Shown here piece by piece: positions 782 through 43,760 of a stretch of 64,000 nt of DNA. The notes under the pieces are model-generated. The model did not search any database. It worked only from the letters and a program-made list of their open reading frames with translations, and was not told the origin of the DNA. The position numbers and the translations under genes were made by a program. Position 1 is the first letter of the stretch; the number at the start of each line of letters is the position of its first letter. The stretch lies in contig QPGO01000066.1 of the NCBI GenBank assembly GCA_008632985.1, positions 203,771 to 267,770 of the forward strand. The letters run 5' to 3'. This stretch comes from Psammoneis japonica (lineage: Eukaryota).

Positions 782-814
<33 letters not shown>

Positions 815-1000: not shown

Positions 1001-1009
1001 ACCAACTGA

Positions 1010-16335: not shown

Positions 16336-16369
16336 TTGGTGTTTAGGTATTTTGCGAGACGAGATTAGT

Positions 16370-18910
16370 GCAATTTCATGTTGAATCACATGTGAGCGGC
16401 CGCTCTTCATGGCGCACAATTCCTGGAATTTCCATGCTGTGTTGCGTGTGACTGTGTGCTCAATGATGCAATGCCGATGGCGGTGAACACCCCTCATGCT
16501 GGCCACACACCCCAGGCCATGGCACCACCCACTCACACTGTCAGAGGAGGAGCTCTGCCATTGCAGCAACAAGAACCCTCCTGCCAGCACGTGCTGCGAT
16601 TGGCACCAAGAGCAAGGGCCACAGCCTGCAGCTCCATTCCTGCCTGTGCAGCTACCACAGGAGCTGTGAATCCAAGAGTGCCCCTGCACCACTGCTCTGT
16701 CTCATCTCCCTCTCATCAGAGTTGTTCTGTGAAGATGACTGGGGCTTCTCAAAAAGAAGCAAGTGAAATGGCATGGTTCAGGACTTCCTTGAGGCACCCC
16801 ACACACAAGCAGGTGGCAGCAGCTGCTTTTCTTGACAATGAAAGCTCGGCTCTGCTGCTGGCGGCCATCATTGACGACAATGTGAATGGGCCACACGCCC
16901 TCAACGTGGGGTGGACAGCTTGTGCTTTTTGGCACTCTTTTTCCTGAGTTGGGGGCCGGCCTGCCAGCTTTTTTCCACTTGGCACCAAGCAGCACCTGGG
17001 CCCCAATCAGCATTGGGGTCATCAAGCAGTGGTTGCCAATGCCTCCAATGCCAAAGACGTGCTTGAGTGTGCAAGAAGTTGTGGCAGAGTCTCCATGCTC
17101 TCTCTCTCTCCTCTTTTCTTTGTCAGGCTGCTTCTGCCCAGCAGTGATTTTGCAGCAGCAGCTGTGCACACACAAAGGTGTGTGGAGATTGCAACAACTT
17201 TTTCAGAACACATCAGCTCCACATCCCATTCAGTCATGAGGCCTCATGTGCAGTGTGTGTTGTGTGAGCTGCAGGCTTTCAAGCAAGCAGGGTGTGGCAC
17301 AGAGAAAAGAAAACACAGGGAGGTTCTGGTCATGTTTCAAGGAGCATCCCCATGGGTTGATGACATTCAATGGCTGAATGAGATGCAAAAATTACTCTAA
17401 ATTGTTTCTGGCAACTTTGCAACAGTTGCGCGCACACAAGGGAGCTGGCACCATGGTGTGTTGTGAGTTGTGAGCATGAGCGTCAACGGGGACAGCATGC
17501 ATGATGGTTCGCACGTGATTTTTGGAATTTCAATGTGACCAATGTGGCTGGACAGGGGTCTGGTTTGAATGATGCAAATCTTTTGCACCAAGTCATCATC
17601 CTCATTGATGAGGACATCCATGCTTTTTCACGCAAGTTTTTCACATTTGTTGTGTCATTGACACACAAGTTGTTGTTGTTGTGAGGCTGCTGCCAATCAC
17701 TCTCTCTTGATCATGTTTTGTTGCAGCAGCATTCCTCGACATGCGGCCAGGCCTCTTTGCTTGAGCAGCAGTGCCACTTCTCATTTCAACAATGACAAAT
17801 GGTTTTTGCTCAAGAGCTTTTCTTCTTCAGAAGAACCCCGCGAAAGCATGCCGTGCGATGTCTTGATTGTCGGTTGTGGCCCCACCTGTCTTGCTGCATC
17901 GATTTGTCTCAAACAACTCTGTTTGCAACATGAACAAGATTTGAGTGTTTGTTTGATTAAAAAGGGATCCAAAATTGGCTCTCACATTTTATCTGGAAAT
18001 GTGCTTGATCCCAAGGCCTTGCCAGAATTGTTCCCAGAAGAAAAGGAAACGTGGGTTCAAGATGACTGCCAGTGATCAACCTGCTGCTCAGACTTCATGT
18101 GTCATTTGCAGAGCACAGCAAAGGGAATCAGCATCAATTCAAATGATGTGCAATGGCCCATTCACATGGCTCAATGGACTTGAATGCTGCGCGCATGTGT
18201 GCACACATGGGCTGTGCAAAAATGTGTGTTGAGCTTGACACGCCCAAGCTGCAAGCTGTTCTTTGTCACACAAATGTCCAATTTGAAGTTCAAAACTTGG
18301 CAATCTGACTGTTGTGAAGGGTCCAAGTCAGCACCTCTTGTGCCCACCCAGTGCAAAAAATTCTGAAGCAGATTGCTTGTTGCTGATGAGCATTTTGTTT
18401 GGCAGCTCTTGCAGAGCTGCAAAAATGAGCTCTGAAAAGGAGATTGTGATTTGTCTTGGTCAAAGCACTGCTGTGAGTGGCTGCAGGTGTTTTGGGGACA
18501 GCTCTTGTGATGGTGGAAGACCTCAGAGTTTGGCAAGAGTCCAGCTCAGCTGTGTTTTCCTTCTCGCATCATCTGAAGGCTGCCCAGATGCAGTGCACTT
18601 TTTGACCATTTCAAGAAAAAGAGTGGAGGCAGGTTTGCATTTGCCACCATGCAGGAGATGACTGCACTCATTGCCTGCTTGACAAGTGTCTGCAGTTTTG
18701 GCAACAGAGTGGCGTTTGGAGCCAAAGCAGGCTGTTGGCACTCTCTTTGCTCCGCTCGGCTGTGTGGCTGTGTGGCAGAAGAGAGAGGACTGCTCCTGAG
18801 GGCAAGAGTTGGGTACAGGTGAACATGGTGTGGTCAGCTGGGCATTGGAACAAAGATTCGGACATGTCGCAACAGCTGTTGTCTTGCTGTGTTGTGAGCG
18901 TGCTTGAACA
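16370..18910. other. TpA-depleted domain 3
   Basis: About six TA in 2.5 kb; begins ~35 bp after the VWD gene stop. Confidence 0.93.
17713..18063 (+). pseudogene. ETFDH: 5' partial duplicate of ETF-ubiquinone oxidoreductase (with upstream region from ~17510)
   Basis: Aligns to 19235-19579. GGGPAG is changed to GCGPTC and the copy is truncated after ETWVQD. Confidence 0.97.
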
Positions 18911-22851: not shown

Positions 22852-23396
22852 GGTGGTTAAAATGTTGAACGTCGTTCCGGTTTTGGAGTTTTGGAATGTT
22901 TTTGCGCCGCGAATGCACGCAGCGCTACTGTGCGCCGCTGCGGCCGCAGGGCACAGACAAACGGACCGCGAGTCACGAAACGCCAGCGCAGAAGTGCCGG
23001 CAACTTTGAACTACGACAAGAGATCCATCGTTCTTGTCACTCCACAATTGTCAGAATTGTCCATGATCTGCTCCATCCCGCGACATCTTTTGCCCTCATC
23101 CCAGCAGTCCATCACAGAGTGGCACGCCATCATGGCTTTCTCATCTGGTTGTTTCGTTTTGCTTTGCCATTTCTTCAACAGCACTGGTTCTCAGCTCCTC
23201 AATCAGCTCAAAGGCCTCAATTTGTCATCATGTTTGTTGAAAACTGCCATTGGTTTTTTTTTTTTTCGAAGACTTCGATGAATCAGCACACATGTGCACC
23301 CTGCTGCCTTTGGAGACAATGTGGAGACATCATTGCCCTGTGTGTGATGATGGATCTGACTGAGTGTGTTGCATCATCCACTGCTCCAGGGAAGTT

Positions 23397-24352
23397 CAGT
23401 GACCGGATCTGCAGATGACAGCCAGACCTGGATGGCCAAGCAGATCTCCTTGAGATTTGTCTCTCACTTTCTTTCTGACTGGTGCTGTTCATCACTGTCC
23501 CAGCACATGTTGGATTGTGCAAGCAGAACCTTGTCTGTTGTGACAGCTGACCGAGTCATGAGTCGTGAGTTGTGTGTGCCAGCGATGACACATCAGACGT
23601 GACTCACAGTCACACACCCAGTGGACAGACATTTCATCACTGTCCTGGCATGCATTGGATTGTGCCAGCAGACCCTTGTCTGTCAGGTCATGAACACCAT
23701 CATGCTGTCCTCCACATCATCAGATGGCTGAGGCTTTGTCTGGGATGGGTCCAACACATTTGATGTCGTTGTTGTCACTGTGTTTGGTTCAATGATCTTC
23801 TCAATGAAGCACTGGCTTAAGATCTTGGTTGCATCATGGCAGAAACCAGGAGGTGTAAATTTGTCCACAATGATTGATGCATCCACAAGAGCACTGGAAA
23901 AGTGGTTGTCCAGGCAAGTGTGGGTGTCTCTGTGAGTGGAGTTGGGTCCAAATTTGAGGTTTGTGGACTTTGTCTTTGTCAAATCAATGGCTTTGGTTGA
24001 CTTGTTGGCCATGGTTGGGCACGCAAAATTTCTGCGCAAAGCTCTGGCATGTGATCCATGATGGTCCTGTTGGTGCAGTTGGTGGGAGAAAAATTGGTGG
24101 TGAGATGGAGATGGCATTTTCTCTTGACAAAAATGGGGCTCTGTGGCACAAATTCTGGTTTGTGTGTTCTGATGATGGCGGAACAGTGCGATGGTGCTCA
24201 TGACCTGACAGACAAGGGTCTGTTGGCACAATCCAATGCATGCCAGGACAGTGATGATGACACAGTGCTGGTTGGAAAGAAAGTGAGAGACTGATGTCAG
24301 GGAGATCTGCTTGGCCATCTGGGTCTGGCCATCCTCCACAGATCCAGCACAC
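23397..24352. repeat. Three copies of a degenerate repeat (23397-23540 +, 23635-23724 +, 24168-24352 -)
   Basis: Shared gatggccaagcagatctcc and catcactgtcctggcatgcattggattgtgc blocks in direct and inverted orientation. Confidence 0.85.
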
Positions 24353-24523
24353 TGACAGCATTGGAAATGATGGTTGGACAATGCATGGATTTGTGTGCTT
24401 TGCAGCAGCAGCAGCATTTGGCCACTGATGGTGCACTGAAATTCCAAAAACCATGCACCCATCATGTGTGACAACTCCTCCCATCTTTGCTCAAGCTCGC
24501 AACATGTGAGACATGTCAAGCAC

Positions 24524-24922
24524 CAATGCATTCTAACTCAGGCAGGGCTGCTTGTGACATTGGGCCCACACAACAATTTTGTGCACAAGCTCCACAGCAA
24601 ATGCATCAGGAGATGATTGTGCAAATGATTGCCAACAGAAAAAGAGGCAAGTTTGTGATCACATCTCCTCTTTCATTCTTGGAGAACATCACTTCTGCTT
24701 TGCCCATGTGTGTGCTTCAGACATTGAAGGCTGCACCCAGTTGGTTTTTCCTCTTGAATTTTGGTGTGACAAAAAGCCTTTGGCTTCACAAAACTGGGAT
24801 CATGAAACAAGTTTGCAGAAGATGACATGTGCAATTGCACGTGTGTGACATGTGGCACATGACAAAAAACTCTGACATCACAGTTCAGCAGCACAAGGTC
24901 CCACCTGGAGCTGGGGTGCATC
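24524..24922 (+). mobile_element. Decayed full-length copy of the ~390-bp MITE at 62535-62924
   Basis: Both ends are homologous (tgtgacattgggccc; cacagttcagcag..aggtcccacct) with similar spacing. Confidence 0.8.
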
Positions 24923-25677
24923 TGCTGTTGTGCCGAAGTTGCTGGAGACAACTTGGAGTGCTTCGCACATCTTGTTCTGTCTTGTTGAATTTTCCACTCT
25001 CTGTGACAGCACAGGAACAAAACTCCCTCCACTCTCTTGCTTTCAACAGCCCAGCCTGTTTCCAAAAAAGCCTGCACATGACTTTCTCAGCTCTGTGTGG
25101 GCTCAACCAAATTTTGCCCAGGATGCATCATTGTTTGTGCCAGCCCCTGTGTGCTCGAAACAAGCACTTTTGTCAAGAGAAGCACATGCCTTTGAAGACT
25201 TTGAGTGCATCACAGTGGAATCAGCAAATCAACTGCTGCAAAGAGCTGCAGTTGGACACAAGATTCTTGCCAAGCTCTGGGTTTTTTCCTCCACTGCAAG
25301 AAGCATTCCCACAATTCCCAGTCAACAATGACACTTTGAAGGGCTGCCAAGGCACAAGCCCCTCTCCATGGTGCTGGAAACTGCCAGGTGTTCCTCCCTG
25401 TCTTGAACCAAGCTCTGAGTCGATTGCTGCTCACACATGGTGCATTGCCAGATGTGATTGCCGCAGTCTTCTGTGCCGTGCAGGCACAAGGAACACCGAC
25501 TTGTATCCTTCACAGAAGTCAGATGGCCAAGCATTGGACATTCAACTTGGGGGTGTTTGTGGCCATCGAGATTCTAGAAGCGCAACTAGAATGAATCCCA
25601 CACACTCCCTCTACTCGTAGCTCGAGCATCATTGATGCTACTAATTATATGATCCCTAGTTATTTCCCGATAATATA

Positions 25678-26913
25678 TTACGTCGACATCGTTGTGTTTT
25701 CTTCTGCTTCGGCAAGTTTCTTCATATCGGCATGTGCTTGCAACGTCAATCCTTGTGTCAATTCCAAAGCTTTGGCCTTTCCAACTCGTTTTGCAAACGA
25801 ATCGAGCCAACCATAAATTTCAGTATGGCTACCAATGACTTTGAACGTATTCAAGCGGTGCTGAAAGTCGTTTGCCGACTTGCGTCCCATAAAGACTTGT
25901 GCTGATCCCATGTAGTGTTGGACTCGAAACATGGCTTCGGAATACGGTGCATTTGGGCCATTGACGCACATTACCGGACTAACACGGTGAGGTGAGCTCA
26001 CGCCGCCTCCATTGTACCGTGACGCGTCAATCATTGGTTTGCCCGGATACAGGTTTTCCAATTCTTGGTGCTTAATATATCGAAGTGTATAAAACAAATC
26101 AACATCAAATCCGTCCGGAGCATACGTTTCGTTGCTGTCTTCGGGTGAAAACAAGACACGAGGAAAAACAACGCATGGCTTTCGAAAATGCCAATATGGA
26201 TCGGTTTGATTCAGCTCATTGGCAATGTAATGAGCCGCCGTTCTTTCTCCAATCCGGGGCACTCTTGTTCGTGGGTGTGTCTTGTTTTCGATCTCTTGTT
26301 GAAATTTCAAATTGCATTCTCTCCTGGATGCATCATCCTTATCAACCGCACACCGCCACGGTTCACCGTCGTCATCATGATAATAGTTGAAAACAAGATA
26401 CTCGTCCGTATCCACCAAGAGCGTCCACGTTCGGTTCTGCCGTTTCAGTGAGTTGAGACAATGATGAATAAATGCCTTTTGACGTCCCCGGTGAAGCTCG
26501 TGGCGTTGGAGGTTGGTCGCATTGTCATTCAGAAACGCTCCCTTTGGCAGGTAATCCTCGTCACGCCACATTTCAATCGTGAAATTTGATAGCGTCCGAA
26601 ACTCCTTCAGAATCGGTTCTGGCGAGATTTTGCTGTATGGATCGACCGCAATAATCAAATGACGGAGTGGCAAGACTTCATAATGATATGCTAGCCATTC
26701 TGGCAAGATGCGATTATCATCCTTGACAATAAGACACGCCGAAAAGGTAAAAGGAAAATCATTGTCAATTTCCGTTTTGACTTTGGGCGGAAGAAAGATT
26801 GCTTCCTCTAGTGACTTTGGGAGAAAGCTGTTGAAGGCCAAATGAAAGTTTCGAGTAAGACCGAGGACCGCGATTATGGCTACAACGAGCAAGCTCTTTG
26901 AAAAGGGAGTCAT
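25678..26913 (-). CDS. Glycosyltransferase-like type II membrane protein (GT-A fold, GT2/GT92-like), paralog 1
   Basis: N-terminal hydrophobic anchor; SACLIVKDDNRILPEWLAYH; DxD motif VDTDEY; C-terminal VQHY. Confidence 0.88.
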   Translation of the reverse strand: MTPFSKSLLVVAIIAVLGLTRNFHLAFNSFLPKSLEEAIFLPPKVKTEIDNDFPFTFSACLIVKDDNRILPEWLAYHYEVLPLRHLIIAVDPYSKISPEPILKEFRTLSNFTIEMWRDEDYLPKGAFLNDNATNLQRHELHRGRQKAFIHHCLNSLKRQNRTWTLLVDTDEYLVFNYYHDDDGEPWRCAVDKDDASRRECNLKFQQEIENKTHPRTRVPRIGERTAAHYIANELNQTDPYWHFRKPCVVFPRVLFSPEDSNETYAPDGFDVDLFYTLRYIKHQELENLYPGKPMIDASRYNGGGVSSPHRVSPVMCVNGPNAPYSEAMFRVQHYMGSAQVFMGRKSANDFQHRLNTFKVIGSHTEIYGWLDSFAKRVGKAKALELTQGLTLQAHADMKKLAEAEENTTMST

Positions 26914-27493
26914 GGTCGTTTTTTCACAATGAAAGCAACAACAACAGGTGCACTGAGTCCATTTCCTCCTTGATCGTGTAGCGAAAGCTCAACGGACCAA
27001 AATGAAACGGATGGAAAAAGTGGCCGGGGAAATATTTATCGATCATACAGATATAAGGATTTATGTATAGAGTCATTCATTGCAATGAAGTGCGATATAT
27101 GTAGCCGTAATGTGTCATTAAGTCGATATTCAGGCTGTATATAAATTTTAATACAACATCCACGACAGTCTTTTGTAAAAAGGCAACGTATGTACGACTA
27201 CATAAGGAAGTCTTTCTGACTCATAATTGCTAGGAATGTCATCTAGCTTCTTTCCTAAGTACAATGACGCAGAGCTTTCTTGATGAAGTTGTATCTTTCC
27301 GCTTGCGTGCCACGTGCAACCTTCGTGATAGATGGTGACAACATATCTCAACATGCATACCGTGTATTCAAACATCGGAAGCCACGTAGACTCTGTAGGG
27401 AATTATGCCGTACGGTAGGTAGGTGAGGCACGCACTTGTTCCCGTTTTGTTGTTGCTGCGGGGCGTGAAGTTGTTGTTGCCGTTGTATTCACC

Positions 27494-28599: not shown

Positions 28600-31500
28600 G
28601 TTTCTGTTCTGCGTGTCTCTTGTTGCACTGTCATCTCCTTCAAAGCAATTCAGATGAACGTTTAAAAAACCTGTTCTTCACGGAAGAGCAGTGGGTGCAG
28701 AACACGCCACAGGGCAGAGCTCAAGAGCACACAAAGACATGCAGCCGCTTTCTGCACCAAAAAAAAGAAAGGCAGTGTTTTTTGTCACAGAGTTCAGCAA
28801 ATGTCACACATCAGGGGGGTGGGTGGGGGCACTGAGGTTTGCAATTCCACACCATGGCAGTGCAATCAATTGTCTGTAGCATTGGTCCATTGTGGCATGC
28901 TGGTTGTTGCAGCCACCGCACGTGCTGATCAGCATCATGCAACAGATGTTGAGCCCCCCAGGGGGGAATTTGTGTGGCAAGGAAATTTCAAATTGGCGGC
29001 GCGCATTTGCACTGGACTGTGGTGCTAAAAACACGAGCTTCATCCTCAGTGCTGGTGCAACAGATTTTGTTCCCATGCCTTTGCTTGCATGCTGCCCATT
29101 GACTGCTCCCTCTAATGCCTGTGAAGAGCTGCAACCAAGTCCACACCATGTTGTGCTGACAAAGATTTCTCCAATGCAGCCAATGAGCTCCTGTGCTGGT
29201 CAGATGTGCTCCTGTGATTGTCACAAGCAACTCACAACCACCATCTGTCAGCTTTCTCTCAGAGCACTGGAGTGTCAGGGGGCATTTTTGCAAAAGTGTC
29301 TCAAATCATTGAAAAAACAGAGCTGAGACTGGGTGCTCTTGGTGGGTGCAAATGAGCACTTGGTGCCCAGCAGTTGTCATGATGACAATGACAAACCTTG
29401 GCAGTGCTCCTTTGACAAGAGCGTCACAGCCAGAATGGAGTGGCAATGCAAGCTTTTTCAAACAACAGGCAGATCAAAAACAAGAGATGTCGAACACAAG
29501 CAAGGTTGCCCTCTCTTCTCTCCAAATGCAAATGCTCCAACCCAAAGCACCTGGCCCTGCTGTCAGCCATTTTTCTCTTCATGCCATTTGCAATGGTCTG
29601 GGAGCTGAATGCAAGCATCTTGTGGCAATTTTGAACAGCTGCCTCCAGCTGCTTTTTTGTTGCTGCAAGAGAACATGATGTGCTGGCTGGTGCAAGCTCT
29701 GCACAAATGCACACGGGCACACTTCTGAGAGCATGTCAATGCAAAATGTGAGCTCACAAAATGTTTTGACGGAACCAATGGCATTGAAGCGTTGTTGTTC
29801 GTGGAAGATCGTTTTCGTAAACTGGCTGCAAAACTTGAATTCACTGCAGGCGAAGAACCATTTGACAATTTCGAAGAAGTGTTGACAGATGCCACTGAAG
29901 ATAAATGGTCCAATCTCACCATGGCGATTCCGGATGCGCAGAAGACGGTGGCTCGTTTTGACCAAGAATTGGCTCGTTTTTGTTTGTCATGTTGTGAAAC
30001 TGAAGCGCGTGACATGATGATTGAATGCTTGCTCTCTCTTAAAAAGCCATGTGATGTTGAAGAACAGGCACATGCGGATCGAATGGAGACCTTGGTGCGA
30101 CACACGAACAAGTTGCCGGGAAATAATCCAGTTGTCACTCAGAGCCAGAAGAAGAAGATGATTTTTGACAGCTTCCCTTTGTCATGGCGTGAGATGTGCA
30201 CAAGAGCAGGACGCACGATTGGAAATGATGCGTTGGCGGAAATTGTCACGCACATGAGCACGGAGAAATCATTTGCAGACAGGAACAAGAAGACGTCGAA
30301 AAAGCACAAAGACGGACAGTCGAAAGGTGGCGGCTCGACCAAGAAGAAAGGCAATCGCATCAACACAGAATCTCAATGTCCTTTGCACACTCACAATCAC
30401 AAGTGGAAAGATTGCATCATGAATCCCGACTCCAACAACTGCCGTCCAAGAACTGATCGTGGAGGTCGCGGATGTGGCGGCCGTGGTGGTCGAGGTGGCG
30501 GTCGAGGTGGAGGTCATGGTCATGGCGGAGCGCAAGGTCGTGGCTGGCAAGGCCGTGGCTGTCAAGGTCGCAGTGGTGGCCAAGGAAACTGCAGTGGTCG
30601 CGGAAACTGCAACTCTGGCGGCAATGGCGGCGAGCATCATGATGATGGTGGCTCTTACATGCAATGTCAAAATGACACCCGAACCAATGCAGATGGCGGC
30701 GGTTACGGCAATCCGGCCAGAACGGCTCCTCCTGATGATTGGTCTGCTGAAAGCCATCATCTTGATTCAACAGGAGGGCCTCAAGAGTGTCGAGGTGGAG
30801 CGGGAAGTTTTCGACCTGGTGGTCGCTTCTCGGGACGCGGTCGACACTGACCCAATGAGCTTGAAGAGCTGTCGTCCGAGTGTGTCGCTCCTGATTCCCA
30901 CATGTTTGATGATTGCACTGATTGCATTGATGATTGTCTTGCACATGCTGCTGATTTATTTGATGATGACGATTTCGGAAATTGTGCTGTGAATGACGAA
31001 GACGATGTGGGACTTGAGTGCGCTGCACCAACCCCAAAAACAAAACCAATTGGACCTTTAAATGTGGTCCCTGCAACCTTGTTCGCAGCACGATTCATTC
31101 AAGACAAGGAAAGCAAGCACGTGATGCGGGTGTTGCTTGATTCCGGTGGAACCCATTCAATGATTCATGCTCGGGTGTTGCCGGTTGGAGCGGTTCCAGC
31201 ATTGGAAGAAACAGGACCGATTCGTGCGAAGTTTCGGACAATGGCAGGAGAACTCGAATCAACTCGTTATGTTTGACTGCAGGACTTGGTGCTCCCTGAA
31301 CTCGACAAGACCAAACATGTTGACGGCATGCATGCGCATGTGTTTGACTCACCCTGCCAATGTGACATGATCCTTGGACAGGACTTCTTGGCAAGAGCGG
31401 GTGTCACATTGGATTTCGAACACGGAATTGTCAAGTGGCTCGGTTCAAGCATCGCGATGAAGCCAAGGAATCAGCGGACTGGCATCCAGCAATGACTCGA

Positions 31501-34500
31501 CGATTTGACTGATGAGCTGGCTGATGATGATGAAGTGTGGGACAGCCACATCTTGATGCAAAGTGTGAGGAGACGTCCCCTTCTGAAGTGGCTTCGGCTC
31601 AGAAGCACCTTGCTGCCAAACAGCAAGAGAAATTGCGCCTCGTGTTGGAGAAACACACTGCTCTTTTCAATGGCACCCTCGGCAAGCATGCTGGCAAAAA
31701 AGTTCACCTTGATGTTAATCCCAACGCCGTTCCGCATCATTCTCGAGCGTGTGCAGTGCCGCACAATGATCTCGAGACCTTCAAGCGAGAATTGGATCAC
31801 TTGGTGGCTCTTGGCGTTCTTGAAGAAGCCGGAACTTCGGAATGGGCTGCAGGTGCTTTTATTCGGCCGAAGAAGGATGGTCGAGTGCGGTGGCTCAGCG
31901 ATTTTCGGGAACTTAACAAAGCCCTCAAGCGCAAGGTTTGTCCCTTGCCGATTGTTCAAGATGTGTTGCAGAAGAGAGCCGGGTGCAAATTTCTTGCAAA
32001 GTTGGATCTCTCAATGATGCACTGTACGTTTGAACTGGACGACGACTCCAAGGACCTGACGACAATTGTGACACCCTTTGGAAAATGTTGACACTGCCGT
32101 CCAGCAATGGGTTTGAAACCGGCTCCAGACATTGCGCAATGCTTGATCGAGAAAACTGTGCACGACTTGGACGTTGACGTGCATGTTGATGATCTAGCTC
32201 AATTTGATGACGATTTTGACATTCACCTTGCTCGTCTTGACAAACTCTTGCAATGCTTGGAAGAAGCTGGGTTTAAAGTGAATCCTTTAAAATGCGAATG
32301 GTGTGTGCAGGAAACGGATTTCCTTGGGCATTGGCTAACTCCGACTGGAATTCGTCTGTGGAAGAAGAAAGTGGAAGCCATTCTGCGAGTGCAACCTCCG
32401 GAAAATGTCAAGCAGCTTCGTTCGTTTCTTGGTGCTGTGACATGCTGTCGTAACATGTGGCCTCGGCATTCTCACCTGTTGAAACCCTTGACAGATCTCA
32501 CAGGCAAAGGCTCGTGGACGTGGACAGCAGAATGTCAGGCGGCGTTCGAAGAGATGAAAGCAGTCCCAGCGGCCGAGACGTTGATGGTGCATCCGAATCA
32601 CAACAAACCCTTCCACATCTGCACCGATGCCAGTGATCACCAGATGGGCACAGTGATTGCACAGGATGGAAAACCTGTTGCATGTTGGTCTCGAAAACCT
32701 TGGTTTGGTTTCACCGTGTTTTTGAACAAAATTCCCCGGGATTGCCACCTTTCACCCTGTTTTTCTACGGAAAGGGTGAATTCCCGGGGAATCGACACGA
32801 GTTGCCCTTCGTCATGTACAAACTGAATGCATGAATAAAAAATTGTGCATTGGCAATTCCCGGTGCTTCCCCTCTCGTACATTTCTGCGTGTTCTACGTG
32901 CCGGCACGCACGGAACCACACATCAGAATTGAAAATCAACAATCGCAACAAAAATGGGCAACACGCAATGGAGCGGCTCGCATCCCATTTATGACAGCTT
33001 TTGTCAAACAATGATGACACCAGTCAATCTAGTGAACAACATTGCGATTGACAGCATAAAATGTAAAATGAATGGATTCTTGACAGATTGTGTTTGGAAA
33101 AAAATGGTGTGTTGACAGATCGTTGCACTTGCTCTTTTGTCGTGCGGTCACAAATGCAAGCCATGCAGCGTCTGCAGCAAAGTCCAAAGCAAAAGCAGAA
33201 CTGTCTGTGGCAAACAAAAATGTGGCAGATTGAATGGTCTTGCTCATTTTTCCAGTCGACACATCTCATGTTCAGAATGAAGCAGATTGTTTAGAATCAC
33301 TGTTGTCGTGCAGCTACAAATGCAAACCATGAGGCGTCTAAAGCGAAGGCTCAGGCAAAAGCAGAACCTCACAAGGCTAATAAAAACTATGGCAGATTGA
33401 GTGTTCATGCTTGTTCTTTCCTTTGAACTGTCTTGTTTGCAGAATGCAGTGTACCGTGCATTCCTTCTTGTGTCGCGTGGTCACAAATGCAAACCACAAG
33501 GGCTCTAGAGCCAAGGACAAGGCAAAAATAGAACCTCACACAAGCAACGTTAATGTGGCTGATCCAATGGCAAAGTTTCTTCTTTCCTTGCTCCACCACA
33601 AGGGGCCGCTTTGTGTCGATGTGTCGATGCAATCATTGTCGTCGTCGCTCGGTCATGGTGATAAAAGCACACCCGCCTAACTGCAATTACCGTACATTGC
33701 CGCACTCCATTCGTTTTTGTTCCCCTCCCCTGAGCCCTTTCAGGCGTTCCTTCCCGCAAAATTACCCTCATTTCCCGGGATTCCCCCAAAAGGGCAAGGC
33801 AACTTCCCCTTGCCCTGGCCATTTTGGGGAATCCCCAAATGGGTAAAACCAAACTAAGTCGAAAACTGAGTGCGGTGCAACAAAACTGCTCGACGATCGA
33901 AAAAGAACTCTTGGCTGTTGTCATGTGCTTCCGCGAATTCTGGACGATGCTCCTTGGCGGCAACTTGCATGTGTTCACTGACCACAAGAACCTTGCCTTT
34001 CGCACCTTGAATTCACAACGTGTGCTCCGTTGGCGCCTCTTTCTGGAAGACTTTGCCCCTCAATTCCATTGCATCGAAGGCCGACCAAATGTCTTGGCTG
34101 ATTGTTTTTCTTGTTTGCCTCATGTGGATCCTCCCTCTGAAGGGAAGAGCTTGGCTCCGGGTGAAGGAACTGTTGTTGATTTTGCTCCGCTCGATTCGAA
34201 GTTGGTGCCGAGTGAGGAACCATCCGAAGTCGAGGATTTCCGCGATGAGGACTTGGAGCTCGGCGCATGCCGATTCAAGTGTTGTCGCAACATTGAAAAT
34301 GAAGGCCACTCACACTTCTTCTCTTTCTTTGTTGATGAGCCGGAACTGTTTGATTCCTTTTTGAATCACCCTGCGATGCAGGAGATGCAAAATCCAATGA
34401 CGTCACAATGGATTCAGGAGCACCAGTTCAAGGACCAGCAATTGAACCAGATGCGCATTGCTCACCCTGATCATTTCCTTGTGGAACATGTGAACAATCA

Positions 34501-35590
34501 ACCGCTTGTGTGTCATCGCATGCAACCAAATGATCCTCCAGGACAGTGGAAAATCTGTTTGCCGACTGCGCTTGTGCCCGACATCTTGCGGTGGTGTCAT
34601 CTCGTCCTTGGCCATGCCGGAAGCCAGCGCATGCGTGAAACAATCCAGACTCATTGTTGTCATCCTGGGTTGCGTTGCATGTGTGATGAATGCTCTTGTG
34701 CTGATTGCCAACGGACAAAACTTTGGGTCCTGGCCATGGAGAGTTGCCCAAACGAGAAGCTCCATTGACTCCCTGGTCGGAAGTGGTGGTTGACCTCATT
34801 GGCCCGTGGAAAATCAAAGCACCGAATGGAGAGATTGAGTTTCGGGCGTTGACCTGCATTGATCCTGTCTCCAATCTTGTTGAACTGTTGAGAATTGAGA
34901 ACAAAACTGCTCGACATGTTGCTGACCAATTCGAAAACTGCTGGCTTGCATGCTGTCCCAGACCGAGTCGATGCATCCACGATGACGGCAGCGAGTTCAC
35001 CGGGTGTGAGTTTCAGATGCCATTGCAACAAGCCAGAATTGATGATGTGCCGACTGCTTCATACAACCCTCAAGCCAACACTGTTTGTGAACGAATGCAC
35101 CAGACTGTCGGCAATGTGTTGCGCACGCTCATTGCTTCTAATCCACCTCAAAACCTTCAGGGTGCAGCTGGCCTCGTGGACGATGCTTTGGCAACTGCAA
35201 TGCATGCAACTCGCTGTGCTGTTTCCCGTTCTTTACAGACATCACCAGGTGCCATGGTGTTCGGACGTGACATGATCTTAGATGTCCCGGCACTGGCGGA
35301 TTTGTTGATGATTCAAGGCCATCACCAGATGCTGATCAACGACAACTTGCGACGAGCCAATGCCAAGAGAAGATCCTGCGATTGTCAAGTGGGTGATCAA
35401 GTTCTAATCAAGTCGGTTGTGGCACGCTCTCGGTTCGTCGAGCTCCTCATGTGGTTGAGCGCCTCAACATTCGGCGCCTGATTCCTTTTCGCGGTTGATC
35501 AGGGGGTTTTCTTCCCAACACCTGGGTTTCCTCCTGCTGTTGTCTTTACTTTTGGTTTTGGTCCTTGGTTTTTGGCCCTTTGCATGATCC
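28600..35590. other. TpA-depleted domain 5
   Basis: TA nearly absent except inside the 32699-33858 insertion. Confidence 0.93.
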
Positions 35591-35621
35591 TCTAGTTCTT
35601 TCGGATCATGGAAGGGAAGAG
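29760..35621 (+). mobile_element. Inactivated Ty3/Gypsy LTR retrotransposon (gag, protease, RT, RNase H, integrase), apparently 5'-truncated
   Basis: Gag ~29760-30850; protease LLDSGG; RT KKDGRVR..DFRELN and HVDD; RNase H TDAS..EKELL..TDHKNL; integrase Zn finger with DLIGP/HDDGSEF/CERMH. Domain order is PR-RT-RH-IN, with internal stops and frameshifts. Confidence 0.96.
32699..33858. mobile_element. 1,160-bp non-autonomous DNA transposon (hAT-like: 8-bp TSD, 17-bp TIR) nested in the Gypsy RNase H
   Basis: TSD tcgaaaac at 32691-32698 and 33859-33866. TIRs cttggtttggtttcacc / ggtaaaaccaaactaag. Removal restores VACWSRKLSAVQQNC. Three internal ~170-bp repeats at ~33140-33550. Confidence 0.93.
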
Positions 35622-35810
35622 TGCAGCAACTCACTCGCACGCTTCTGATATATAGTATTAATTTTGAATATTAGATTAACGTAGCCGTTTGAGAGAGGCT
35701 CGCCAGCGTTCGCTAACGCTTAGGCTCCCCTCTCTTCGGTCTACTCACTTCTTTGTTTTGACATCAATCTCAGCTTGAGCTTGCAAATTGGCTCAAAATG
35801 TCTGTGACAT
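35610..35810 (+). repeat. Putative polypurine tract and 3' LTR of the Gypsy element
   Basis: ggaagggaagag followed directly by TG at 35622. The right end is uncertain and no second LTR was found. Confidence 0.45.
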
Positions 35811-36033
35811 AATCTCTTGGAGAATGACCGACAAATTTTCGAAATTGAACGGAAACTCGGAACCGCGTTTGTTTTGGTTGTTGGTGTTGGGGGTTAGTTG
35901 GCATGCGTGCTGTTCACTGTGTGCTCTATTGCTCATTGCTTACCTCACGCCATTGAATGAAACGAAAACGCATGAGACAAAAACAAACTACACAGAAAGT
36001 GGCAGCTTGAAAGAGACACTAATCAAGAAGAGA

Positions 36034-37320
36034 ATGCCCCAGACGAGAAAGACGGCTAGGAGATTCAAGAAGAAGCCATCTCGCTGGATCGTCTTACCGT
36101 ATTTGTTGGTCATACTCATTTCCCGCATCTTTCGTATCGAGCTTCATCTGCCTTACACCGAAGACAGCTGTGAATCTTCCGATTGCGAATCATGGGCACC
36201 GCCAAAAGATTTTCCCTTTACGTTTTCGGCTTGCATAATTGTCAAAGACGACAATCGCATCATACCCGAATGGATTGCCTATCATTATGAGACACTCCCT
36301 CTCCGCCATTTGATCGTTGCGGTCGATCCATACAGCAGAGTTTCGCCAGAACCGATTCTGGAAAAATTTCGGACGTTACCCAACATGACGATTGAATTGT
36401 GGCATGATGAAGATTATCTAGCAGAGGGAGAGTTTCGAGACGACAATGCTGACAAAGAGAAGCGATACCAATTGCATCTTCTTCGTCAAAGGAAATTTAT
36501 GAGCAAATGTCTGGTTTCGCTCAAGCAGAAAAACAGAACGTGGACAATGCTCGTAGACCCAGACGAGTATCTGATTTTCAACGACTATGACAAAGACGAG
36601 GAAGCAACACCGTGGTGCCTAGGGGACAAAAATAGGACTGAATGTCAAGTAAAGTTTTATGAAGACATTGAGAAGGGGGTGCACCCACGATCAAGACTCC
36701 CCAAAATCGGGGAGGCTACGGTGGCACACTATATGGCTAATGAGCTTAATCGCGCCGATAGGTACTGGCATTTCGATAAGCCATGCATGGTGCTTCCCCG
36801 TGTTTTGTTTTCAAACGCAGCAAGCTCACCGAATGAGACTCAAGCCCAGGTTCCTGAAGGATTTGATCCTAACGCATTTTACACACTCCGATACCGCCAT
36901 CACCAGGCGCATCAAAACAAATTTCCAGGGAAACCCCTCATGGATGCCTCGCAGTATGATGGTAGCTTCGTGCCGTCTCCTCACATCGTTAATCGCGAGC
37001 TGTGTGTTAACTCCCCTTTTGTTTCGTATGCAGAAGCAATGTTTCGCGTACAGCACTATATTGGCCCCAAGGGCACATTTATGGGTCGAAAGAGCGAGGC
37101 AGATTTCAAAAAACGCGTAGCTAGGCTTGGAAGGATTGCGGGTACGAATGATGAGATTCGGGGATGGCTGAAATCTTTTGCACATCGTGTCGGCAAGAAG
37201 AAGGCCTATGAATTGACTGAAAAAACGACACGGGATGCTCATGCAGAAATGAAGACGTTAATGGAGGCATCATTGAACAAAACAAATTCAACAAATTCTC
37301 AACCGGTAGCGGTAGTGTAG
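36034..37320 (+). CDS. Glycosyltransferase-like protein, paralog 2
   Basis: ATG at 36034 precedes a TM helix; SACIIVKDDNRIIPEWIAYH; VDPDEY. Confidence 0.88.
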   Translation: MPQTRKTARRFKKKPSRWIVLPYLLVILISRIFRIELHLPYTEDSCESSDCESWAPPKDFPFTFSACIIVKDDNRIIPEWIAYHYETLPLRHLIVAVDPYSRVSPEPILEKFRTLPNMTIELWHDEDYLAEGEFRDDNADKEKRYQLHLLRQRKFMSKCLVSLKQKNRTWTMLVDPDEYLIFNDYDKDEEATPWCLGDKNRTECQVKFYEDIEKGVHPRSRLPKIGEATVAHYMANELNRADRYWHFDKPCMVLPRVLFSNAASSPNETQAQVPEGFDPNAFYTLRYRHHQAHQNKFPGKPLMDASQYDGSFVPSPHIVNRELCVNSPFVSYAEAMFRVQHYIGPKGTFMGRKSEADFKKRVARLGRIAGTNDEIRGWLKSFAHRVGKKKAYELTEKTTRDAHAEMKTLMEASLNKTNSTNSQPVAVV

Positions 37321-38799
37321 AGGTTGATTTGGCTTCTGAGTACTATTATATGCACGTCAATGACCCAGACCTCCTTCCTGGACAGTCCGAAGAGTCGCCG
37401 CTAGAGTATAGCTTTCAGGCTTGAGGCTTGTTGCTGCGTTAACTCGAGAACCTCAAATTTTGCGATTCTTGCGTGTGATCAAATGTAGTTCATTAATCCG
37501 ATCCACATTGTCAAAATGAGAGTACACGAGCTCGTAAAATGTGGATTATAGTTTTCATGATGCTGCTGTGCTGTTGTGGTTCATGCATCGTGCTGACTCA
37601 TCTGTTGTTGATTTTAATTTTCGTTTTCTGTGAGAGAGAGGCTTGTGTCTGTATCTCATTGGCTGATGCAAGCAATTTGTGATGACTTGACAAAAGTCAT
37701 GGATGTGTGCTTGTGTCATCAAAGCTGCCCCTGCATTGTCAACGTGCCAAAAAAAAAAACCGACTCTTTGCACAAGGATGCCTTTCTCAAGCCAAAACTG
37801 CAAAAAAATGAAGGGCTGGTTTGAAAGCATTTTTTGCATTTCTGTGAATTGTTGCAGATGACCTGAACATGTGTCACTTCAACCTGTGACAAGCAGCAGA
37901 CATTTAACCTGCCACACCCAAGACACCAGCTTGTTGCTTGAACAATGTGTTGTCTGGCCATCATTGCTTGAGCAAGAACGACAGCATCTTGTTTTTGCAC
38001 ATTTGAGGTCACACAAACAAATCTGTCATGGTGAAAGCAGCTTGAGCTGGATGCCAGTGGCAAATGCCTCAATGTGGGCCTTGCAGTGGCATTGTTTTGC
38101 CTCTTCCTGCCCCATCATCATCATCATGCTGTCATCGCAGCCATCACAGAGAACAATCTTTGGAGCTCAGTCAGACAATGCTGTCAAGACAGGCAAGCAG
38201 CTTTGCCTTTCCAGGAGCAGCAGCCATTAGAGAAAAGGGACAGAAATGACAAAACAGACAAAAAAGATGGAACCTGGTGTGACTGGCAACCACGCAAAAT
38301 GTGCAACACTGCTCACTCTCTGACAGCTGCACCAGATGATCCATGAACTGCCAACAAGACCATTGTCAAGTTGATCAAAGATGACATCCAATGTGAAAAC
38401 ATGCTGCAGACCTGGAGAGTCACCTTGGTGAGAGAATTGCAGTGCATTGCAGCACATGACTGAATGGGCTGGAGAGCATTGCAGCACTGGTTCTGTGGTG
38501 ATGAGTGTCCAATGGAAGTTCAAGTCCATTGCTGGTGTTGATTTTGTCCAGACCATTTTCTCAAAAAATGATTGTTGAAAGTCACAAAGAGAGTTGGTCA
38601 TGGCAAACCACAAAATGACAAGCCAAAAGCAAGCCACCAAGCTTCCTCAAGCAAAATGACATCAATGCTGAATCACCAGCCTGCTGTCCAGCATCACCTC
38701 CCCTGAAAAAAACCTCATTTTGCAAATGCCCACATGATTTTCTCTTCTTGCATTCATGTGCATCACTCTCATTGTTGTTGTTGTTGTTGTTTTTAATTC

Positions 38800-39430
38800 C
38801 CTTGTCATGATGTCCAGTGGCATTTCTCTGGCCAATGATTTCGCTGCAAACAATGATGTCACTGTCATTGACATTGACGTGGAGCATTCTCCTCTTGATG
38901 ATGACCGTGATGATGGTGACAGCAAACCCAATGACAGCCCCAATGATGCCAGTGCCAACGACAGTTTGTGCAATGTCAACAATGATGATGCCTCTCATGA
39001 GAAAGATGAGAAGATGCCGGACCACCCAGAATGGCTCATCAATGAGAAAGACACCACTTCTGATGGGTTGGCGCATGATGTCACCACTGGCTCTCCTTCC
39101 CACCCACCTGCATCTTCTGCTTGTGATGCTCACAAAAGCCCACCTGCATCCCATTCAGATGTGCTGTGCTCAGTTTCTGTGCCATCGTTCATGGAAGGCT
39201 GTGGCACTCACTCTGCAGAGGGCCCACTCAAGGAGCAAAGCAAAGAACTTCTTGCAAAAGACTGGCTCACTGTTGATCTTTGCAACAAGACAGACAGCTT
39301 GGCTTCAACCAAGGAAGAGTTTCTAGATGGATCTAAAAACCAATGGTGCTTGGATGCACTCAAGCAAAAGTGCCACAAGATGTTCCCACTTTGCAAGCTG
39401 CGCCAGGCTGCAGTCCATCAACTGGCTGAT
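38800..39430 (+). mobile_element. Possible remnant of a Mutator-like transposase N-terminus
   Basis: Acidic leader then WLTVDL...LKQKCHKMFPL..LRQAA, reminiscent of diatom MULE-type ORFs from memory only. No catalytic core seen. Confidence 0.25.
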
Positions 39431-42400
39431 TTTTTGCAGAGAATGACTTGGATCAACTGTGCGTGGTGGCTGCAAGGGTGTTGAGCACAATGCTGGACTG
39501 TGCACAAAAGGGTTTGTCCATTGATGCAACCTTCAAAACCATGTTGTTGATGACCAGTGTGTGGACTTGCCATGACAACCCCATCTTGGCACAAAGCAAG
39601 ATCAAGAACAGAGCAGCAAAGCAGAGCTGGCTCATGTCTTTCCAAGAATGTTGCTGCACTGCAGCCATGGTCATTTGAGCCATTGGTGCTCAAAAGCATT
39701 CTGCAAATGTTGTTGATTGTCTTGCCTTGAGTGAGGATGACATCATCTGTCCACCAAGAAAACAAAGTTTTCAGAAATGCTCAGCGGGCAAAACAATGGG
39801 TCATTCACAAGACAACTGCTGCCCAAGTCTGCATGCTTTCAAGAGACCACCCCTCAAGGTGAGAGGCATGAAGCAAAGGTCAGTCCCCTCTGCACTCAAC
39901 TGCAAAATGCCCATGTGTTTCACACAATGCACCGTGATGCTGACGACAATCCTGCAGTCCACAAAACACACCCCAATGGTGGACAATTGCAACAACAGTT
40001 GCTCTGCAAACTCCTTGTGGACAATTGTGCAGATCCAATTGGCAGTTCCTTGATTGCTTGCAAGCAAGGCTCAGTGCTGCCCATTTTTCCACATGGCAAC
40101 AGCATGCCAGCCTTGTGTGACTCTTTCTTTTGGAACAACAGCTGGTTCAGAAAGGAGTTGTCCATCCACTTTTCCTCTTTCCAAGCACCCTTCCCATTTT
40201 GCTCACAAAAACATCTCATTCCATCAAAATGTGACAAGCATTTTGTGACAAAGCTGAAATTTCTTCACAGATGCATTCGCAAAAGTGAGGCACCTGCCCA
40301 GGTCCAGTTTCTTTTTCAAAAATTTGTTGAGCTCTTTGATGCAAGTGTGGCCAGTCACTCATCCACTTGGGAAGGAAACTGATGCCAATCTTGTTGCAAA
40401 TGGTGTGTTTCTCAACCAAGTCTTTGCAATTCTGTGTGTCCCTTGTGACAAAGTTGTGGATGGTCTTGTGGCATGATGAGCATGCCATCACGTTGTTGAG
40501 AGACTCTCCAAACATGTGCCACAAAAAAAAACACAAAGAATCACAAGGAAGCAACTTTGTGCTGCCACATCCACTGAGGCATGACAACTGGAATCTTTGA
40601 CACATTTTGTCTGAGCTGACAAAATCTTTGCAAGTTCCCACCCAGGTGCAGTTTGTTTGAATTCCTTGAAAAGCTCAAAACAACCATCTGGCACAACAAG
40701 CACCCCAAATGCATCCCATGACAACTTTGAGGCTTGGCATGGAGCAAAAGCAACATGCAAGTGGTGATTCCTCCAAGAAACACAGGGCTCTGTGAAAAGA
40801 AATGGAAGGCACAGAGCATGGAAACCATTTCCAGCATGCTCAAATTGAAACTCAGAGCTGGACAAATGATGCAATCCATTGCCATCATTGCAAATGATGG
40901 TGGATCAAGACTGCACTTGTTGTGCACAATGTCAAACCCTGGAAGATGCTGGCATTGTTCTCCTTCTTGCAGGTGATCATCAATGAAGTGACATGACTCC
41001 TCAAAGCCATTGTCAATCTTCCATGATTTCTTCCAGCAAAACATCATGGTTTTTGCGATTGTCACACACGTTGTCAGTTGATGGACACATTTGTCCATTG
41101 AGGCCAAGCCAAGCACCACATGCAACCTTCAATGTTCCAATGACAGATTTGATGATGGCCTTGTCATCCTCATGGCAACCACAGTTGTTCTTGATGTCAC
41201 CAACAGACAACCGCATGGACTCCAACACATTGTCCTTGCAATCAGTTTGGGCGTGCCAATGTTTTTTGCACTTGGGGTTGTGCTGCATCTGTTGCAGAAA
41301 GAAAAGGGTGGAAAGTTGCAGATGGATCCATCACTCCATTCATCCAGAGCAGACACAATCCTTGCATCACAAAAGTTGGAGAAGGTGATTTGGCAGCATG
41401 GCATCCTTCCCATCCTTGTGAGGCAACACTGATTGGCACTTTGTCAAATGAAGCAAACTGGGCTCATGTGTCATTCCCAATGGGAAATGAACAGTCTGCC
41501 TCTCCAAATGAGGAGAGATTTCCTGCTGGATTTGGAGATGCCACAATGGCTGGAATTGGGCTTTTCAAGTGCAAAGCCAAGGTTGAAAATGGATTCCTCA
41601 AGCAAGTGACAGCAAGAACCTTGCTTTGTGATTGACAGGAACACATTGCAGCTGGCCAGTGAAGAGAAAACTTTCATTGGAAAAAGAGAAGGGTCAGTGC
41701 ATGCAGCCCTCAAACCAGGACCATTGCCATCAACAAGCTGCATGTTTTCCAAGCCATCTGATTCAGGGACATTGACAATGAAGAGTGCATCTTGTTGTCC
41801 ATCAACTGGGACATTTGCAAAGTTGTTGGTGCCTGTGCTCAATCCAACAGAGGAACAGCCACAGTCAGAATCAACATCATCATCAGTTTTTGACATGCCG
41901 CCACCACCATCAGCCCAGATGATGACACCTCCAACACCACTGTCTGCATCAATGGTGTCACCACCTTTCTACATGCCACAACTGCCACCAAAGCAGGCCA
42001 CAACATCAACCCTGGCAAAACCTCCAACACAATTGGCACAACATTTGGAAGCAGCAACACAAGTTGAGGCTGGAACACAGCAAGCATCACCCACCACAGG
42101 AACACTGCCCAAGACCGACCACCCCACCATGAGGGTTGCTAAAGACAGGTGTGGTTGAACCAAGAGAGCACCCATGAAGCTGCCAGAACATGAGCGGAAG
42201 CCACAATGCTGTGCATTGCATGTCATGGCCAGCTGTTGGGACCAGGGCATTGTGACATGGCTGCCATGCAATGGTGCAGCACCTTGATGCACAGCATTCT
42301 GACCCCCCCCCCCCCCGGCTCAAAAGAACCATTGCCTGAACATGTCTTTCTACAATGCTGCTTGGCAGGCTTTCTCCCTGCAAAGAAATCTCAGCACAAA

Positions 42401-43346: not shown

Positions 43347-43760
43347 TGCCATGCCAACATCAAACCAAGCAACATGATGCTGGAAGGGGCCAGGGGAAAA
43401 ACAGTGGTGACGATTGACTTCGGATCCAGTGTTTCATGCGGTGAGAGCATCACTGGGCTCTCTTTTGATTTCGGACTGGACTGTTCTCCCAAAGGCTTGC
43501 TTGAGTGTGACCTGACTTGTCTGGCAGTTTCCATTTTGCACATGACGACTTCGACAAACAATCCGCTGAGGGAAGAAGTGACATGAGCCGGGCTCGCGCG
43601 TGCTGTCGGAGACCCATCAAACATTGCTTTGAGGGTCGCAAAAGCTTGTTTGATGGAGGGCAAGAGCATCAATGAAATTTGGGAAGAGGCCAAGGGGTTC
43701 ACAGAAAGCCGGTTTGGAAATGCGGAATGGCTTGTCGACTTTGAGCACATGTTGCCACAG
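43347..43760 (+). pseudogene. Protein kinase C-lobe fragment
   Basis: CHANIKPSNMML (HxDIKPxN with gccGac->gccAac) followed by TIDFGSS; in-frame TGA at 43584. Confidence 0.75.

Follow-up and report, generated by a model that had tools for sequence, protein, structure and literature searches.

A 64,000-nt stretch of a contig of the diatom Psammoneis japonica (QPGO01000066.1, positions 203,771 to 267,770 of the forward strand; "the window" below) carries at 29762-35648 (+) a degenerate copy of a Ty3/Gypsy-type retrotransposon in which the conserved tyrosines have been replaced by cysteine or histidine. Most probably this is a dead, 5'-truncated member of a multi-copy family whose tyrosine loss is the footprint of a hypermutation process that converted TpA to TpG or CpA on chromosomal DNA. 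What the sequence shows directly is a mutational signature with a polarity and a TpA context, which occurs on both strands and is distributed in blocks. In the window, only for the Gypsy copy do protein relatives reveal the ancestral state, and the direction of change is thereby fixed.

The entire gag-pol of the copy could be aligned end to end with 20 full-length, intact relatives (2.8-4.6% Tyr), and columns with Tyr in at least 60% of these were taken as consensus-Tyr columns. At the 19 such columns the window copy has Cys 12 times, His six times, Leu once and Tyr never, as the original prediction had claimed in describing a systematic change of Tyr to Cys or His. When the relatives themselves served as pseudo-queries, they retained 58-100% of the consensus Tyr and had at most one Cys and two His. 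The other consensus residues (n = 364) were kept at 79% in the window copy and at 67-85% in the control relatives. Because these residues are kept within the control range while the Tyr columns are lost, the loss is specific to tyrosine, and the earlier statement that the remaining motif residues are largely intact holds as well. Natural Cys or His at these positions in active relatives, named beforehand as the finding that would speak against the claim, was not seen; the 20 intact relatives keep Tyr. The 18 changed codons span 30251..35385 (+), with Cys codons (TGT or TGC) at 31361, 31564, 31750, 31939, 32023, 32086, 32446, 33887, 34070, 34595, 34954 and 35383 and His codons (CAT or CAC) at 30251, 32020, 32092, 32182, 32590 and 34735. 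Over the gag-pol frames just 4 of 1539 residues are Tyr (0.26%), with Cys at 4.55% and His at 4.48%, compared to medians of 3.96%, 1.73% and 2.88%, respectively, among the 120 nearest database proteins.

All motifs listed by the original prediction were found in place. These include CPLP (TGT at 31939), the reverse transcriptase box HVDD (cat gtt gat gat, 32182-32193) in place of YIDD, TCCR (from 32443), CTDASDH (from 32611), ACWSRK (from 32680), NCSTIEKE (from 33884) and GKC*HCRP (32080-32103), along with MMHC, FHCIEG, WCH, THCCH and SCDCQVG. The proposed derivation of GKC*HCRP by three TA transitions and one CG transition fits the consensus G.YRY.RLPMG, from which it differs by TAT>TGT, CGA>TGA (32089), TAC>CAC and CTA>CCA (Leu>Pro, 32101); the Cys encoded by TGC within this motif falls in a variable column. 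A single TA transition cannot give the W of ACWSRK from Tyr. The span proposed for Gypsy pol, 31100..35410, is not continuous, as a transposon insertion interrupts it at 32699-33858.

The rule behind these changes is that A after T becomes G, on either strand; on the sense strand, Tyr>Cys arises where TA became TG and Tyr>His where it became CA. No amino acid other than Tyr (TAY) has codons starting with TA, and each hit turns it into Cys (TGY) or His (CAY), which makes Tyr the one residue at which no hit is silent. At 18 of the 19 columns the codon is TGY or CAY, which the TA-directed transition process that had been proposed accounts for. An elementary step of this kind, an A-to-G transition at a T-preceded adenine on either DNA strand that converts TpA to TpG or CpA, would also remove ATA and GTA, turn CTA into CCA and change T-preceded codons that start with A (Ile or Met to Val, Thr to Ala). 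In the frames of the Gypsy copy, ATA, GTA, TAA and TAG codons number zero, and TTG outnumbers TTA by 58 to 5. Where a codon starting with A has become one starting with G (Ile>Val, Met>Val, Thr>Ala), the preceding base is T in 12 of 12 cases, compared to 46 of 108 conserved codons starting with G (p = 3.6e-5). Since TAA and TAG both contain TA, the process removes stops and cannot create any, and it disables genes by missense changes only.

Without its insertion, the Gypsy copy has an observed/expected (o/e) ratio of 0.086 for TA and 0.83 for CG. Decay of CpG is also evident in pol, with 11 changes of Arg to Gln, His, Cys or Trp in addition to the CGA>TGA stop. With CG still at 0.83 while TA has fallen to 0.086, the TA process is separate from CpG decay and probably faster. 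The copy has 5.3 TA per kb, whereas 80 related loci, the best of 518 confirmed metagenome loci, have 28.5 or more (median 52.7). The TA o/e of these loci ranges from 0.45 to 1.08, with none below 0.45; heavily mutated copies would score lower in such a search, and the 80 loci say nothing on the frequency of the process in nature. Biased gene conversion was considered as a cause and rejected, since only TA is affected, with no depletion of AT, AA or TT. The probability that the family naturally avoids TA, with Cys and His native at these positions, is practically nil: we found no point in its support, and it conflicts with the Tyr content of the intact relatives and nearest proteins and the TA content of the related loci. 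In addition, the changes reach the active-site box of the reverse transcriptase and the integrase, and the copy is otherwise broken.

The assignment of the element to Ty3/Gypsy was made from a Pfam scan and the alignment to relatives. Matches to RVT_1, RT_RNaseH_2, RT_RNaseH, Integrase_H2C2 and rve lie along the copy in the domain order of Ty3/Gypsy elements, i.e., protease, reverse transcriptase, ribonuclease H (RNase H) and integrase, with scores for RVT_1, Integrase_H2C2 and rve slightly under their own Pfam cut-offs. The closest proteins are retrotransposon polyproteins with 52-60% identity (E down to 1e-153), and the named close relatives are reverse transcriptases of the diatoms Nitzschia, Cylindrotheca and Thalassiosira. 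A gag-like region (29729..30850, +) has no Pfam match, aligns with the N-terminal part of the full-length relatives and is closed by a TGA at 30848-30850. The aspartic-protease region (31100..31495, +) was recognized by the consensus L.DSG column (DSG at 31139-31147) and contains in-frame TGA codons at 31274-31276 and 31493-31495. It is followed by the reverse transcriptase (31534..32400, +), identified by RVT_1 and the alignments, and by a first part of RNase H (32521..32698, +; RT_RNaseH_2, 6.5e-14) that is cut by the insertion. The second part of RNase H (33867..34060, +; RT_RNaseH, 3.1e-14) precedes the integrase (34562..35070, +), whose H2C2 zinc-binding region (34562-34720) and catalytic core (34810-35070) were placed by Integrase_H2C2, rve and the alignment.

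The ends of the copy were placed in part by comparing 28600-35700 with the contigs of one public DNA run, which include 2818 contigs of related copies. Multi-copy homology begins at 29762, where the summed word depth, which does not equal copy number, rises from 60 in the flank to 2000-4600, and seven contigs have a loose end upstream. The copy thus belongs to a multi-copy family and, as the other copies diverge upstream of 29762, it is 5'-truncated. A repeat search found no long terminal repeat (LTR)-like direct repeat bracketing the copy, and neither an LTR pair nor a target-site duplication. With no LTRs and a truncated 5' end, membership in Ty3/Gypsy therefore rests on pol. The 3' limit at 35648 was placed solely by the return of TA density. 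A direct repeat pair elsewhere in the window (38278/45603) was tried as an LTR clock, and it was weak and uninformative, aligning at only 70%.

The Gypsy copy is dead. An active member would have an intact YxDD and an open gag-pol, and here we found HVDD, four in-frame TGA stops in pol and gag (30848, 31274, 31493 and 32089), two 1-bp frameshifts (a deletion near 31552-31554 and one at 34713/34714) and a 1160-bp insertion. Contigs of other copies have an extra base at 31552/31554 and at 34713/34714 and TGG at 31493-31495, and one of them joins 32690 directly to 33859, omitting 1168 bp, as expected of an empty site. These lesions are thus private to this copy. From the conservation of the residues involved, a reverse transcriptase with HVDD and an integrase without its tyrosines are expected to be inactive, and the loss of Tyr, including YIDD>HVDD, would be sufficient to disable the enzymes.

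The insertion (32699..33858) is a non-autonomous element with terminal inverted repeats (TIRs), identified by its inverted and direct repeats and by the empty site elsewhere. It has 17-bp TIRs, sub-terminal arms that are palindromic and three internal repeats, each ~167 bp long, and it is flanked by an 8-bp target duplication, TCGAAAAC, at 32691-32698 and 33859-33866. Removing the insertion and one target duplication restores the frame of RNase H (SRK-L-SAVQQNCSTIEKE). With a TA o/e of 0.31, the insertion is less depleted than the surrounding Gypsy copy, and both mismatches between its TIRs lie at TA sites, one TG/TA and the other CA/TA. The insertion is itself multi-copy.

Differences between copies bear directly on how the TA sites were lost. 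The contigs differ from the window at 440 places, with 383 transitions and 57 transversions, and site classes were counted in the 40 best-supported of these. Six are adjacent double differences between CA and TG, nine are CpG sites, four have TA in the window and TG or CA in the others, and two show the reverse. As some copies have CA and others TG at the same site, each copy resolved the ancestral TA independently. Such differences are not expected of a deterministic miscall, and this is one of several reasons why we regard a sequencing or assembly artefact, i.e., systematic miscalls at modified bases in repeats, as extremely unlikely. Some long-read base callers do miscall modified bases, and only 40% of the sampled 31-mers of the Gypsy region were recovered in the public DNA run. 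Against an artefact, 477 contigs are at least 99% alike to the region, and a 4902-nt contig with a word depth of 60 matches 28600-29791, which is mostly TA-poor, with zero differences (the run from which this contig comes is possibly the assembly's own source, and its platform is not on record). Five database proteins from other records (P0003, P0059, P0094, P0135 and P0374) also have the same pattern of Tyr to Cys or His.

The TA-poor state is not limited to the Gypsy copy. Ten TA-poor blocks make up 27.8 of the 64 kb (~43%), with a TA o/e of 0.03-0.13 and CA and TG ratios up to ~1.9, in comparison with a TA o/e of ~0.4-0.8 in host open reading frames (ORFs). The Gypsy copy lies in a continuous TA-poor block between two host genes (28670..35648), delimited from the list of TA positions. 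TA is dense up to 28663 and from 35649 and sparse in between (borders 28663/28877 and 35593/35649). The block begins ~200 bp from a bHLH-like ORF that ends at 28462 and stops ~130 bp before a glycosyltransferase-like ORF that starts at 35779. Within this window, the change is localized to repeat or foreign DNA, and host genes have normal composition. Per 100 dinucleotides, the TA-poor blocks have 0.40 TA, 2.30 CG and 21.74 TG+CA (24.45 in sum), and the genes have 3.37, 5.89 and 14.75, respectively (24.01 in sum). The near-equal sums indicate that the loss of TA and CG is matched by the gain of TG and CA. The part of the block upstream of the Gypsy copy (28670-29761) has a TA o/e of 0.043 and a CG o/e of 0.18 and is single-copy at a likeness of at least 85% in the DNA run. 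This flank could be a repeat of great age; if it is not, it is evidence that targeting needs no repetitiveness.

Five further blocks (1-4150, 16351-18950, 22451-25600, 37551-45800 and 62851-64000) have a TA o/e of 0.03-0.08, a CG o/e of 0.20-0.68 and CA and TG ratios of ~1.5-1.9, and they look like older victims of the TA process with CpG decay in addition. The Gypsy copy has lost ~90% of its TA and little CG while the older blocks have lost both, which suggests a rate above that of CpG decay. We searched 106 ORFs of at least 90 amino acids from these five blocks and from 7401-8250, 28601-29760 and 61751-62850, and 105 of them had no Pfam match; the sole match, to DUF6550, was weak (E = 0.0014, 19.3 bits compared to a cut-off of 27), leaving no credible match among them. 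Two short stretches, 7401-8250 and 9451-10250, are TA-poor (o/e 0.10 and 0.11, respectively) with normal CG. The former, with its raised CA and TG, is possibly a small insert that was mutated. The latter lies in the 5' part of a large ORF with VWD and PT repeats and has little excess of CA or TG, and it may reflect composition only.

A duplicated fragment of a host gene, outside the Gypsy block, allows the clearest test on DNA and a check of polarity. The ETF-QO gene (19196-21091), whose named best matches are all from diatoms (63-71% identity), has a duplicate of its 5' part and upstream region at 17511..18063 (+), in another TA-poor block; the parent segment is 18953-19579. Among the 17 TA sites of the parent, six are now TG in the duplicate, six are now CA and one is kept, and of its 29 CG sites, 12 are now TG or CA and 11 are kept. 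The parent, 1.5 kb from its 90%-identical duplicate, is unchanged; of two homologous copies, then, only one was targeted. The controls were two pairs of paralogous glycosyltransferase genes located in normal DNA (84 and 73% identical), which have symmetric differences and share 29-30 TA. That the ETF-QO parent and the 84%-identical paralogues were spared suggests that the cue lies in the region and not in homology. As the duplicate gene fragment and the DNA-transposon insertion were changed as well, the process acts on chromosomal DNA, on both strands, and beyond retroelements.

The same observations are relevant to the idea that the TpA process is real but a by-product of silenced, late-replicating or modified chromatin, for example through an off-target tRNA deaminase or biased repair. 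The single-copy flank (28670-29761) and the host-gene fragment were hit too, which would fit a regional cue better than recognition of mobile elements; the sparing of the 84%-identical paralogues implies that homology alone is no trigger. Set against this, a weak side activity hardly accounts for the sharp borders at host genes and the near saturation over 27.8 of 64 kb. A comparable process in the chlorarachniophyte Bigelowiella natans was, in the passages of the preprint that describe it (Mettrop et al., bioRxiv, 10.64898/2026.01.13.699255), active only in some lines, which suggests regulation. We consider a by-product unlikely, though it deserves to be kept in mind.

The glycosyltransferase-like family has five genes in the window (25678-26988 on the minus strand, 35779-37320, 46000-47307, 55767-57053 and 57624-58913), with weak GT2/GT92 Pfam matches and 66-84% DNA identity. 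None of them is TA-depleted, though two directly adjoin TA-poor blocks.

An origin at the RNA or reverse-transcription stage, where ADAR-like editing of transcripts or deamination of complementary DNA (cDNA) would give copies that are born mutated, predicts a different distribution. The sense strand of the Gypsy copy (29762-35481) does have more TG than CA (498 and 349, a ratio of 1.43), compared to a ratio of 1.03 in host genes and median o/e values of 1.18 for TG and 1.10 for CA in the 80 related loci. ADAR also favors a 5' U (10.64898/2026.01.13.699255, in its discussion of candidate enzymes), and outcomes at the same site differ between copies. The sense strand, however, contains both A>G and T>C (12 Tyr>Cys and 6 Tyr>His, an imbalance that alone is not significant, p = 0.24), and the balance is reversed in another Tyr-free protein from the databases, with 16 His and 12 Cys. 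The DNA transposon, the host-gene fragment with its upstream region and the single-copy flank all carry the signature without reverse transcription, and the TA-poor state is unbroken across element junctions. Near-total loss of TA in a copy that is incompetent for transposition would also need repeated hits in place. An RNA or cDNA origin is thus very unlikely as the general explanation, and the excess of TG on the sense strand could hide a minor contribution of this kind.

The TA sites that survive in the TA-poor blocks (n = 101) differ in context from those of the 80 related loci. Over-representation reaches 3.3-fold for TTAA (22 of 101, p = 5e-7), 2.2-fold for CTAG and 1.5-fold for CTAA, while ATAT is absent and ATAG and ATAC are nearly so. 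This bias suggests an extended preference for A at -2 and/or T at +1.

Because the signature is symmetric, T>C at TpA cannot be distinguished from A>G at TpA, and the initial lesion could be on thymine. TET/JBP-like hydroxylation to a base of the 5-hydroxymethyluracil (5hmU) type might serve as a silencing mark on transposons, followed by T>C at TpA on either strand through mispairing or error-prone excision repair. We know of no 5hmU from diatoms. Passages of a study on dinoflagellates (PMC11572971) describe 5hmU as marking and silencing transposable elements, with a preference for T in TA and TC. Such a preference should also convert TpC to CpC, and this is not seen: TC has an o/e of 1.00 in the blocks and 1.14 in genes, and CC has 0.85 and 0.92, respectively. 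The authors of the B. natans preprint likewise favor adenine deamination in the part that treats the mechanism (10.64898/2026.01.13.699255). We therefore regard a thymine-side lesion as distinctly unlikely.

The closest parallel is in B. natans, and a search of the literature found this preprint as the single matching description and no report of the signature in diatoms; the supplementary tables of the preprint might bear on taxa and contexts. In its account of the mutation-accumulation lines, two integrated viral regions received 231 of the 302 nuclear mutations, and 230 of these 231 were A>G or T>C, all 230 on TpA (10.64898/2026.01.13.699255). The same source gives a Rho of 0.45 in the viral region and 124 clusters in 95 Mb, reports that TA-poor genes are enriched in reverse transcriptase and DDE domains, and puts forward an ADAT2-like deaminase as the agent, as a proposal only. 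Supplementary tables aside, it makes no mention of tyrosine, stop codons, a TTAA context or diatoms.

In both organisms the changes are restricted to TpA, give TpG or CpA according to strand, couple the loss of TA to a gain in CA+TG, act on chromosomal DNA and, going by the preprint's main text, are localized to foreign DNA. In our case, transitions of A>G or T>C at TpA account for the codons at 18 of the 19 consensus-Tyr columns, all 12 A>G codon changes and 12 of 17 TA sites of the ETF-QO duplicate, and TA loss is matched by CA+TG gain. The two cases differ in host, which is a diatom (stramenopile) here, and in targets: in place of the giant-virus and virophage insertions described for B. 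natans, the changes in the window hit a Gypsy family, a DNA transposon, the duplicate of a gene fragment and blocks that could not be classified. The window is near saturation, with a TA o/e of 0.03-0.09 over ~43% of 64 kb in contrast to that Rho of 0.45, and CpG decay is present alongside. A live mutation rate was measured in B. natans (per the preprint's text), whereas the process in the diatom was read from sequence. We would accordingly file the diatom case as the same kind of hypermutation in a different lineage, much nearer saturation and transposon-directed.

Repeat-induced point mutation (RIP) of ascomycete fungi turns CpA into TpA, enriches TA, creates stops and hits both copies of a duplicate. 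The process described here resembles RIP as a block-wise, dinucleotide-specific transition hypermutation of repeats that ruins transposon genes and leaves neighboring genes intact. It runs in the opposite direction, however, destroying TA and enriching CA and TG, and TAA and TAG codons are at zero with none made. Unlike in RIP, the parent of the 90%-identical duplicate and the 84%-identical paralogues were spared; in short, neither TpA enrichment with new stops nor mutation of both duplicates was found. Genes for RID-related DNMT4 proteins are present in diatoms, with a function given as unknown in the pertinent passage of PMC9998398.

Other systems share single features with the process. The products of methylation-driven CpG decay in silenced transposons are likewise TG and CA, and such decay occurs in the TA-poor blocks as well (the older ones have a CG o/e of 0.18-0.37), but it cannot remove TA. 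In animal retroelements, APOBEC3 and ADAR act on cDNA or RNA with a one-strand bias, G>A for APOBEC and A>G for ADAR. Like them, the present process has the appearance of deaminase-type, context-dependent transitions that cripple retroelements, and ADAR shares the preference for a 5' U. In contrast to both, it affects both strands and non-retroelement DNA and is near complete rather than clustered. Polarity of a single strand through RNA or cDNA was not found in the window, where Tyr>Cys and Tyr>His occur together and DNA of a transposon and of a gene fragment is affected.

The favored explanation can be outlined as follows. The underlying chemistry would be that of an enzyme deaminating adenine to inosine, with an ADAT2/TadA-like deaminase, of the kind proposed for B. 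natans, as one candidate. The process acts in place, has almost reached saturation in stretches of repeat or foreign DNA that end sharply at host genes, and probably runs ahead of CpG decay. Chromatin or silencing state, and not homology, would determine the targets, and the biological role may be genome defence, as the original prediction had suggested. We find a defence role and an adenine deaminase as agent plausible.

Several points weigh against this explanation. The excess of TG on the sense strand may point to a bias between the strands, which is not expected of a process that treats both strands of DNA alike. The flank at 28670-29761 is TA-poor and single-copy, and repetitiveness may not be the targeting cue. 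The other TA-poor blocks are without recognizable coding content, so that their transposon origin is assumed. The other lesions of the Gypsy copy would inactivate it by themselves, and the loss of Tyr appears as one lesion among several. The DNA run used for comparison may be the assembly's own source and thus may not be an independent replicate. Lastly, the evidence consists of sequence throughout, from which an enzyme, a base modification or a mutation rate can at most be inferred.

A broader, joint reading would combine these elements: diatoms would have a regulated, region-targeted deamination of DNA adenine that erases TpA, to saturation, from transposons and from other DNA that is silenced or foreign. 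The process would be distinct from RIP, with its opposite direction, its lack of new stop codons and its asymmetry between homologous copies. It would follow a context rule in which TTAA is largely refractory and ATAT is fully lost, and it would run faster than CpG decay. Tyr codons would be its main coding target, and the Tyr-free, stop-poor "proteins" of databases would be a by-product. Together with Bigelowiella, TpA editing could then be an old arm of genome defence across the SAR supergroup. Judged as one proposition with all of these parts, we hold the joint reading only tentatively, at somewhat less than an even chance.

The process also has consequences for databases. Its coding effect is to erase every tyrosine and to change residues whose codons hold or adjoin TA, and it leaves long open frames. 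Because TAA and TAG stops are removed, hypermutated copies come to be annotated as genes; gene callers will predict long, Tyr-free ORFs rich in Cys and His, and several are already in public protein collections. The five proteins named above (P0003, P0059, P0094, P0135 and P0374) are pol-related and have 0-0.9% Tyr with an excess of Cys and His, and their leading substitutions relative to intact partners are Y>H, Y>C, L>P, T>A, I>V and K>E. For P0003, comparison to its intact partner P0001 shows that 32 Tyr became 16 His, 12 Cys, three Phe and one Val, and the next most frequent changes are Leu>Pro, Thr>Ala, Ile>Val and Lys>Glu. At the same time, Pfam scores fall under their cut-offs, and the copies diverge too fast for repeat finding based on k-mers or identity.

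If a DNA adenine deaminase is responsible, its naturally TpA-specific activity would be of interest to base-editing research. If our interpretation is correct, transposon-directed A>G hypermutation would take place in diatoms, which are among the most abundant and best-studied algae. A second lineage beyond the chlorarachniophyte would turn an oddity into a candidate for an ancient defence, in a group that is tractable for the enzyme hunt.

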